This document shows, one piece after another, positions 52,009-52,358 of a DNA stretch of 64,000 nucleotides; positions within the stretch are counted from its first letter, which is position 1, and each line of letters starts with the position of its first letter. Below the pieces are notes generated by a model. That model had not been told where the DNA came from and searched no databases. It saw nothing but the letters and a program-made list of their open reading frames with translations. A program made the translations under genes and the position numbers. Source of the stretch: an uncultured Bacilli bacterium (GTDB lineage: Bacteria; Bacillota_I; Bacilli_A; RF39; UBA660); NCBI GenBank assembly GCA_934167465.1, contig CAKPKR010000001.1:287030-351029 (forward strand), in the 5' to 3' direction.

Positions 52009-52358
52009 TTTTTGTCGGAATTTGTATGTAAAAAATTAGATGAAAAAAATGAAAAATATAGTAGAATATAAAACGATATATTTAATTGGTGTTAGTGCAT
52101 TCCTTCTTCAAAGAAGGAGGTGGTATTATGAAAGAAAGAGAAAAATCTTTATTTTTAATAATACTCCTATTATTTTTTATAATAATTACATTATTGTATA
52201 AATAATAAAATATGCACTATCACAGGGGATAGTGCAAACCAAACTTAATGGAATGTATCTAACTCTTTAGACAATTAGATATATCCTTTTTTATTGTATG
52301 AATAATAACTCATCTATATACATATTAGCATTTTAAAAATATTTTTTCAAGTTTTTTT
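52009..52358 (+). repeat. copy B of the duplicated ~350-bp sORF/hairpin module
   Basis: Shares the 5' boundary TTTTTGTCGGAATTTGTATGTAAAAAA and the 3' boundary TTTTTTCAAGTTTTT with copy A. Confidence 0.75.
52128..52205 (+). CDS. 25-aa hydrophobic peptide MKEREKSLFLIILLLFFIIITLLYK, paralog of 44475-44552
   Basis: The SD GGAGG is sequestered in the hairpin CCTTCTTC-aaa-GAAGGAGG. Confidence 0.4.
   Translation: MKEREKSLFLIILLLFFIIITLLYK

Follow-up and report, generated by a model that had tools for sequence, protein, structure and literature searches.

The 64,000-nt stretch of DNA considered here (hereafter the window; positions 287,030 to 351,029 of contig CAKPKR010000001.1, assembly GCA_934167465.1) belongs to an uncultured Bacilli bacterium of the UBA660 lineage and carries, at two intergenic sites, copies of a cassette of about 350 bp that we call copy A and copy B. 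Around copy A lie spoIIR, mntP, and a class II aldolase gene; towards copy B lie a murA-type gene, rpmE with its Firmicute L31 leader, FemAB, rpiB, and a DUF1146 gene, and downstream of it a gene for a 285-residue protein, followed by spoIID, an M23 peptidase gene, spoIIID, and mbl. Each copy contains a small open reading frame (sORF) and, facing it, signals for an antisense RNA. We propose, with a probability that we put at roughly 60%, that the cassette represents a new family of putative toxin-antitoxin (TA) modules of type I, self-contained and with a 3′-overlapping antisense RNA.

Two copies of one cassette in the window

Copy B (52009-52356) and copy A (44356-44708) are colinear and 88% identical over 353 nt (blastn E value of 2.6e-126), bearing out the original prediction of a second copy with the same boundaries. 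Neither self-comparison of the 64-kb window nor a search of it with an nhmmer profile found a third copy. The order of elements is common to both: a purine-rich Shine-Dalgarno (SD) tract upstream of the sORF, the 25-codon sORF itself, a perfect hairpin directly 3′ of the stop codon, a longer stem-loop with a T-run, and, about 60 nt beyond that stem-loop, a promoter-like site on the minus strand. The sORF has the same length and register in the two copies, and the stems of the hairpin at 52213-52236 and the whole of the stem-loop and T-run at 52250-52286 are identical, all as had been predicted. The minus-strand promoter TTGAAA-17-TAATAT is likewise present in copy B, a few bases from where it had been placed. 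The features of the cassette, with coordinates in the window, are as follows.

52009-52356, plus: copy B, starting with the left conserved block and ending at the −35 of the antisense promoter; 88% identity with copy A; nhmmer match at 52010-52357
44356-44708, plus: copy A, between the spoIIR terminator and mntP; sORF at 44475-44552; from alignment and nhmmer
52009-52061, plus: left conserved block (TTTTTGTCGGAATTTGTATGTAAAAAA...TAGATGAAAAA), kept in 7 of 7 loci
52040-52067, plus: tentative sigma-A promoter of the sORF mRNA, ATGAAA-16-TAGAAT; scan match of 9 of 12
52074-52297, plus: predicted sORF mRNA of ~224 nt, minimum free energy (MFE) of −65.7 kcal/mol; ends placed from the −10 box and the terminator
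52075-52103, plus: arm in the 5′ untranslated region (UTR) of a 27-bp long-distance pairing with 52250-52285 (inverted repeat I2)
52102-52117, plus: SD hairpin, CCUUCU-loop-AGAAGG; 6 bp, 100% paired in ten sequences
52128-52205, plus: sORF, 25 codons and TAA; copy B peptide MKEREKSLFLIILLLFFIIITLLYK
44475-44552, plus: sORF of copy A; peptide MTKREISLFLIIILLFVIIFTLLYR
52213-52236, minus: intrinsic terminator of the antisense RNA (UGCACUAUC-loop-GAUAGUGCA, then a U-run); −12.4 kcal/mol
52250-52297, plus: terminator of the sORF mRNA; 12-bp stem, 12-nt loop, U6; −9.8 kcal/mol
52203-52315, minus: predicted antisense RNA of ~113 nt with three hairpins; ends placed from promoter and terminator
52296-52313, minus: antisense 5′ hairpin, AUGAGU-UAUU-AUUCAU; strand-specific pairing
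52322-52350 (read 52350 to 52322), minus: antisense promoter, TTGAAA-17-TAATAT, with an upstream TG; from promoter scan and conservation

The claim that this pair by itself reveals selection on both the peptide and the RNA structure did not hold up. Between A and B, no functional part diverges more than the sORF (12 of 75 nt), and compensatory changes number zero. The case for selection could be made only because five further copies were found.

Further copies and empty sites

A scan of metagenomes with a 20-mer from the invariant 5′ UTR recovered five further copies, all in metagenome assembly OGPT01 and 79 to 91% identical to A or B, for a total of seven distinct cassette loci. Their contexts are these.

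L030: between gltX and a proline racemase gene, the downstream gene being convergent
L017: between a HerA-like gene and a pyrimidine-nucleoside phosphorylase (PyNP) gene
L020: downstream of a gyrB/parE-type topoisomerase B-subunit gene
L028: beside a secreted-protein gene
L023: beside a pilin-like gene

The downstream genes are unrelated, and their orientation differs from locus to locus. A neighboring gene with 82% DNA identity to window positions 5565-5797 indicates that the OGPT01 organism is related to the window host yet distinct. Nine other matches to the 20-mer in the metagenome scan were chance matches, in which the nhmmer profile shows no further similarity, and the same profile found no more degenerate copies in 286 kb of collected sequence. 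Scanning genome contigs with a 20-mer from the terminator loop gave only two copies, in a metagenome-assembled genome of the same species; this is a weak lower bound because the query sits in a variable loop. There was no match to the cassette in plasmid and phage collections (blastn, distant mode), and pattern scans of viral contigs gave 0 matches. Several contigs (L003, L005, L006, L007, L020, L023, L028, and L031) start or end inside the cassette, as expected for a multicopy repeat, since repeats break short-read assemblies. The sORF is absent from the gene calls listed for the cassette loci.

Both window sites are empty in relatives. At the copy B site, the gap between the DUF1146 gene and the 285-aa gene is 497 nt in the window; in relatives with 76% and 74% identical 285-aa proteins it is 66 to 76 nt and holds a terminator followed by the gene's promoter, and the cassette is absent, as it also is upstream of the gene in short contigs encoding 82%, 80%, and 88% identical proteins. 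That gene has its own perfect promoter, TTGACA-16-TATAAT at 52382-52409, which is kept in the relatives without the cassette. At the copy A site, spoIIR and mntP are ~475 nt apart in the window; relatives with a 90% identical aldolase (FBA) have an unrelated 245-nt filler in place of the cassette, and a relative with an 84% identical FBA has three other genes (60, 459, and 181 aa). In strain L011, the GTDB representative, a deletion of ~44 nt at the left end of copy A takes away the spoIIR terminator together with ~30 nt at the start of the left block. The spoIIR-mntP intergenic region is, in itself, a variable hotspot (window 44308-44782; L013 458-2804; L035 5026-5270).

Taken together, the five copies in other contexts and the emptiness of both window sites in relatives indicate that the cassette is autonomous, dispersed, and lineage restricted, in line with the earlier proposal of a multicopy element rather than a gene-specific leader.

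A small ORF under coding constraint

The sORF has the same length and frame in all copies, with 0 indels, while the SD region and the 3′ spacer do carry indels. Its start codon varies only from ATG to GTG (GTG in L030), and a purine-rich SD stands at the correct spacing in every copy. Six distinct sORF sequences gave 14 pairs with a defined ratio of nonsynonymous to synonymous differences (pN/pS). The ratio was 0.13 to 0.56 in 13 of the 14 and 1.09 in one, the partial pair B_win versus L023, which has only 5 differences.

The peptide has 25 residues, with a 17-residue hydrophobic core, and falls into two sequence types, MKEREK(S/T)LFLII... and MTKREISLFLII... Over core codons 8 to 24, variable sites are distributed 8/1/8 over codon positions 1, 2, and 3 (binomial P = 0.0096), a pattern that protects the middle base, which decides hydrophobicity, and lets L, I, F, V, and M replace one another. 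We found no other conserved ORF on either strand of the cassette. We conclude from these observations that translation of the peptide is probable, as is its selection as one transmembrane helix whose N terminus is charged.

Two other reading frames were considered and set aside. An upstream ORF from the ATG at 52040 (52040-52201; 53 aa in B and 27 aa in A) is in another frame and spans the promoter, 5′ UTR, and sORF; the 53-aa version is the ORF that a gene caller would list there. Its ATG is missing in L030, B_L012, and L020, its stops differ, and it lacks an SD. A 12-codon ORF in the antisense RNA has its frame broken in L017 and L030.

An mRNA predicted to be locked by its own terminator

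The predicted mRNA of the sORF folds far more stably than shuffled sequences. A 233-nt version from copy B has a folding energy of −66.3 kcal/mol (z of −7.85 versus shuffles), and the mRNA of copy A has −57.4 kcal/mol (z of −6.12). The dominant feature of the fold is a 27-bp pairing in which the 5′ end of the mRNA joins both arms of its own terminator. These 27 pairs are 99 to 100% paired across copies, the only changes being from C-G to U.G, and keeping the first 30 nt unpaired in a constrained fold costs ~16 kcal/mol. The MFE structure of copy A differs in that some of the 5′ segment is paired to the 5′ arm of the hairpin after the stop codon, which makes alternative conformers of the mRNA plausible.

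A second conserved element, the SD hairpin, covers the 5′ half of the SD tract, which runs on to 52123. Its loop is TCAA, TAAA, or AGAATA, and two of its pairs vary, by wobble only. It had been proposed that an 8-bp hairpin fully sequesters the SD in copy B. Such a hairpin can form there (−9.4 kcal/mol), but it is specific to copy B; the conserved stem has only 6 bp and takes in the 5′ part of the tract. Pairing of the SD and start region with codons 11 to 14, seen in the copy B MFE structure, was rejected, as, on our reading, other copies do not keep that pairing.

The stems of the mRNA terminator are invariant in seven sequences, and the loop differs in L030 and L017. The terminator scan did not flag this structure (52250-52297), which falls outside the scan's loop and GC criteria. 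At the 5′ end, the −10 box of the tentative promoter varies only among TAGAAT, TAAAAT, CAGAAT, and TAGAAG, with a TGn upstream in three copies. A sigma-D-type promoter built on the invariant CGATAT was also considered and was rejected for what we read as inconsistent spacing to a TAAA box.

How far these structures are supported by covariation was a point raised in the original prediction. Stem differences between copies do preserve pairing: in the plus-strand stems no pair is altered on both sides, and the few changes are from C-G to U.G or U-A to U.G. A single pair at a stem base swaps between U-A and A-U, and the remaining stems are invariant or changed by wobble, so that true compensation is nearly absent. 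The RNA structures rest, for this reason, on sequence conservation and thermodynamics.

A predicted convergent antisense RNA

On the minus strand, the promoter has the consensus TTGAA(A/T/C)-17-TA(A/C/T)TAT, with the 17-nt spacing in all copies; in copy A it reads TTGAAA-17-TACTAT, at 44702 to 44674, again with an upstream TG. Hexamers kept at a fixed distance around a freely diverging spacer form what, on alignment evidence, is the classic signature of a working promoter. This promoter is nearer to consensus than the tentative promoter of the sORF, which would fit an antitoxin made in excess.

The RNA predicted to start there would fold into three hairpins: a 5′ hairpin (52313-52296), the reverse of the mRNA terminator, and its own terminator (52236-52213) followed by a U-run. 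Its folding z scores are −3.76 in copy B and −4.68 in copy A. The terminator scan flagged the antisense terminator on the minus strand in both copies (44584 to 44561 in copy A), with 0.0 expected from shuffles; its stems are invariant, and the G-run of its loop varies. The pairing of the 5′ hairpin is specific to the strand. On the minus strand, 100% of its cells are paired, with three variable pairs accommodated through G.U, whereas the same positions read on the plus strand are 85.7% paired, with A.C mismatches.

Each of the two 3′ hairpins has a U-run on one strand only. The transcripts would therefore converge, each reading through the terminator hairpin of the other, to give a predicted overlap of ~95 nt (52203-52297) that takes in the stop codons together with all of the 3′ UTR. 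The 5′ UTR segment at 52075-52103 almost reproduces the antisense RNA's middle hairpin with the loop removed; as a result, the antisense RNA would have the 5′ end of the mRNA as a competitor for its target. A trans interaction of the antisense RNA with the 5′ UTR and ORF was also considered, but 15 to 24 of 200 shuffles reached as good a pairing energy (RNAduplex).

Conservation along the cassette

For the four copies that are full length and differ from one another (A, B, L030, and L017), mean pairwise identities are as follows.

5′ UTR segment 52075-52104: 0.98, the most conserved
antisense −10 to start site: 0.94
mRNA terminator stem-loop: 0.91
left block: 0.90
antisense −35: 0.86
sORF: 0.85
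spacer between the two 3′ hairpins: 0.57
antisense promoter spacer: 0.52

Homology to the other copies stops exactly at the antisense −35, at TTCAA(G/T). At the other end, the left block (GTCGGAATTTGTATGTAAAAAA...; 44356-44408 in copy A) sits upstream of the best −10 candidate, and no structure or alternative promoter is evident in it.

Proposed function

We imagine the cassette to work as follows. A weak sigma-A promoter (−10 TAGAAT) would drive an mRNA of ~224 nt that encodes the presumptive toxin, a membrane peptide of 25 residues with a single helix. The first 30 nt of this mRNA would pair (27 bp) with its own terminator region, and the conserved hairpin would mask part of the SD; together these predict a compact full-length mRNA with poor translation. 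A stronger convergent promoter (TTGAAA-17-TAATAT, with TGn) would make an abundant antisense RNA of ~113 nt with three hairpins, which would pass the hairpin of the mRNA terminator and end at its own terminator beside the sORF stop codon. This RNA would be perfectly complementary to the entire 3′ UTR. The resulting duplex would mark the mRNA for double-strand-specific cleavage, in which we infer a role for RNase III, and so shut off synthesis of the peptide, as in txpA/RatA and bsrG/SR4, neutralizing its toxicity; possibly the duplex would also reinforce sequestration of the SD.

Type I modules have mRNAs of 150 to 400 nt and peptides of 20 to 60 aa, and in Gram-positive families the antisense RNA is 3′ located, with partial overlap of the mRNA (PMC8594479). 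The predicted mRNA of ~224 nt and the peptide of 25 aa, with its coding-type constraint, are of the type I size. Type I toxins are small hydrophobic transmembrane peptides, usually but not universally with charged C termini (PMC6563280). The antisense gene expected of such a module is predicted from sequence signals: the conserved promoter facing the sORF, the terminator on the minus strand, and the hairpin whose pairing is strand specific.

Several observations weigh against a type I module. The charged cluster of the peptide is N terminal (KEREK/TKRE), and the C terminus has only Y-K/R, so that the usual clustering of charge at the C terminus of a toxin is not seen. No curated toxin or antitoxin family matches the cassette. 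Rfam, which includes 13 type I antitoxin families (PMC8594479), gave nothing above noise, whether the whole window was searched at gathering thresholds or the two copies at E ≤ 10, and neither peptide had a match in Pfam or NCBIfam at E ≤ 10. The sORF has a weak promoter with an uncertain start site, compensatory covariation in the RNA stems is essentially nil, and the conserved left block of ~55 nt has no place in the proposed module. Finally, the copies are closely related (79 to 91% identical), and every one of them comes from one narrow lineage.

Alternative explanations

The cassette might be the gene of a benign small membrane protein, such as an accessory or regulatory subunit, with a cis-antisense regulator. 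The coding and antisense evidence fits that idea equally well, the N-terminal charges are atypical for type I toxins, and copy A lies directly upstream of mntP. Such genes are, however, seldom found in at least 5 near-identical copies dispersed over unrelated intergenic sites, each with a convergent antisense RNA, and absent from sister species, and heavy structural locking is typical of toxin mRNAs. We regard this explanation as unlikely, though worth keeping in mind.

It is improbable, to our reading, that the element is a noncoding repeat or makes only a small RNA, the sORF being a by-product of T-rich sequence. T-rich DNA does give hydrophobic residues by default, we estimate that a 25-codon frame stays open by chance about 1 time in 10 in DNA of ~25% GC, and the RNA segments are better conserved than the sORF (0.98 and 0.91 versus 0.85). 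This would leave unexplained the 8/1/8 distribution over codon positions (P = 0.0096), the pN/pS below 0.6 in 13 of 14 pairs, and an ORF that stays free of indels between flanks that have them, keeps its SD spacing, changes its start only from ATG to GTG, and is the only conserved one.

Conservation also bears on the idea of an element like a miniature inverted-repeat transposable element (MITE), or one derived from IS200/605, whose hairpins serve transposition and whose RNA and peptide features are incidental. What is conserved follows the promoters, SD, codons, and terminators. The cassette is certainly dispersed, with polymorphic filled and empty sites and sharply defined ends; 5 of 7 copies abut a T-run, and assemblies often break inside it. 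However, the ends have nothing but A/T runs by way of terminal inverted repeats, none of the seven junctions shows a target-site duplication, the hairpins are internal (65 to 70 nt from the ends), and no transposase lies nearby in the window or at the cassette loci. This origin, which may coexist with a TA function, seems to us very unlikely.

We give almost no credence to a leader-peptide attenuator of the downstream gene, in which the position of the ribosome on the I/L/F-rich sORF selects hairpin or terminator: exclusive pairings exist (52089-52100 with 52212-52223 or with 52250-52263, and 52213-52236 as its own hairpin) and the terminator lies 45 nt past the stop codon, but the downstream genes are unrelated, and convergent in L030, leaving no fixed co-oriented operon, the gene downstream of copy B owns a consensus promoter also present in relatives that lack the cassette, the conserved 60 nt past the terminator are a backward-facing promoter, and the cassette is absent at orthologous sites in relatives.

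One can also envision an extension of the proposed TA module, a long shot in our opinion: a selfish mini-element, that is, a TA module that multiplies itself at terminator T-runs without transposase, terminal repeats, or target duplication. In a three-way competition, the 5′ end of the mRNA and the antisense RNA would both contend for the terminator region of the mRNA, the antisense RNA displacing the intramolecular lock in addition to forming a duplex. The left block GTCGGAATTTGTATG might then be its recognition sequence.

Relation to known type I systems

As a type I module, the cassette would share features with several known systems, and the likeness to hok, ldr, ibs, and fst-type modules drawn in the original prediction survives in the core of our interpretation. 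The E. coli repeats ldr/Rdl (LDR) and ibs/Sib (QUAD/SIB) were first seen as intergenic repeats of several hundred base pairs, in 4 to 5 copies per genome, each containing a very small hydrophobic ORF along with an antisense RNA of its own. The cassette is likewise a dispersed intergenic repeat with a hydrophobic mini-ORF and a predicted antisense RNA, but ldr and ibs belong to another phylum, have no sequence similarity to it, and have an antisense RNA that is 5′ of the ORF (Ldr) or spans it (Ibs).

In hok/Sok and aapA1/IsoA1, the extreme 5′ end of the mRNA pairs with the 3′ end to give a compact, translationally inert full-length mRNA. This locking principle is all that these systems have in common with the cassette; they are Gram negative, their antisense RNA is directed to the 5′ or translation-initiation region rather than the 3′ UTR, and there is no homology. 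The hok gene has the overlapping mok frame, while the cassette has no conserved overlapping upstream ORF and no Pfam match. Unlike in hok, the partner of the predicted lock is the terminator hairpin itself, which would also be the target of the antisense RNA.

The Fst/RNAII system (par, Enterococcus and relatives) has, like the cassette as we predict it, convergent RNAs that overlap at their terminators, an ORF left uncovered by the antisense RNA, a single-helix peptide (~30 aa in Fst), and 5′ structure limiting translation. The cassette differs in having no match to the toxin in Pfam or NCBIfam or to RNAII-type RNAs in Rfam and in having a separate terminator hairpin for each RNA, in contrast to the one shared bidirectional terminator of Fst/RNAII. 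For an interaction of the Fst/RNAII type, through 5′ direct repeats outside the terminator overlap, the RNAduplex comparison given above (15 to 24 of 200 shuffles as good) showed no significant signal in the cassette.

Among the B. subtilis systems, txpA/RatA, bsrG/SR4, bsrE/SR5, and yonT/SR6 resemble the cassette in being Gram positive, with convergent genes, a small hydrophobic peptide, and an antisense RNA of ~100 nt that is the complement of the toxin mRNA's 3′ part. In the bsrG mRNA, the SD is partly in a 4-bp hairpin that becomes 8 bp once SR4 binds (PMC3834814); in the cassette, too, a hairpin would sequester the SD in part. There is nevertheless no sequence or profile similarity of toxin or antitoxin. 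The peptide of the cassette has 25 aa and N-terminal charges, compared to 28 to 60 aa in the B. subtilis systems, and its antisense RNA would cover only the stop codons of the ORF, whereas the B. subtilis overlap usually reaches the ORF too (PMC8594479). The B. subtilis loci are mostly single copy and in prophage-like regions; the cassette is multicopy and in housekeeping intergenic regions.

Closer in habitat are CD2517.1/RCd8 and others in C. difficile, whose toxins resembled no known family at the time of their discovery (PMC6563280). Like the cassette, these modules belong to a low-GC gut Firmicute and have convergent, overlapping toxin and antitoxin genes. Their toxins, of 34 to 59 aa, have a lysine-rich C terminus and are associated with CRISPR arrays or prophages, while blastn of the phage and plasmid collections gave no match to the cassette. 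Judged by sequence and predicted structure, then, the cassette is akin to txpA/RatA and bsrG/SR4 through its 3′ overlap, to hok and aapA1 through its lock, and to ldr and ibs as a dispersed intergenic repeat, but it belongs to none of these families.

Other features of the window

The gene downstream of copy B (52431-53288) had been called kinase-like and the one downstream of copy A MntP-like. The latter assignment is correct; for the former, Pfam, NCBIfam, and PDB sequences gave no match to the 285-aa product. Its translation does contain DIHEGSF...AIDLDS, which, read by eye, resembles a kinase catalytic loop and metal-binding motif. The gene adjoins spoIID in all relatives found (52 homologues, all without a Pfam domain and named "hypothetical protein"), and its product could be an unclassified, sporulation-associated protein with a kinase fold.

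Rfam and ARAGORN placed a T-box leader at 31983-32181, the L31-Firmicutes leader upstream of rpmE at 48164-48194, a small-type signal recognition particle RNA at 19444-19540, and tRNA-His at 63475-63550. The window has another repeat, of 179 nt and 94% identical (4686-4864 and 5556-5734), which is the common 5′ coding end, with a signal-peptide-like N terminus, of two minus-strand genes (3836-4891 and 5183-5734). Beside each of these genes is one of two paralogous small genes (933-1133 and 4957-5172), within repeat families D3/D5; further repeat positions are 941-1111, 4968-5138, and 62146-62217. A homologue of the genes with the 179-nt repeat adjoins the cassette copy in L028 (82% DNA identity). 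In L031, whose 285-aa protein is 96% identical, DNA-methylase and ICEA-family genes are inserted between the DUF421 and SNase genes (6187-8174), probably a restriction-modification insertion; it is absent from the window strain.

Significance

The host is an uncultured, very AT-rich, spore-forming gut Firmicute, and the contigs that encode an identical 285-aa protein all come from human-gut metagenomes (Hadza and others). Type I TA families are lineage specific and hard to detect, their peptides being too short for gene callers. New families of this type appear regularly; this one comes from in silico work and from one narrow uncultured lineage. If our interpretation is correct, it would add a type I family in an uncultured, spore-forming, low-GC lineage of gut "Bacilli" known from metagenomes only. 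The cassette marks recent insertions that separate closely related strains and species. Compact RNA-controlled modules are reportedly being reused as regulatory devices, and the cassette offers RNA parts that can be tested, a predicted 27-bp lock joining the 5′ and 3′ ends through the terminator, plus an antisense RNA predicted to cover the 3′ UTR, with parts unusually well delimited by comparative evidence.

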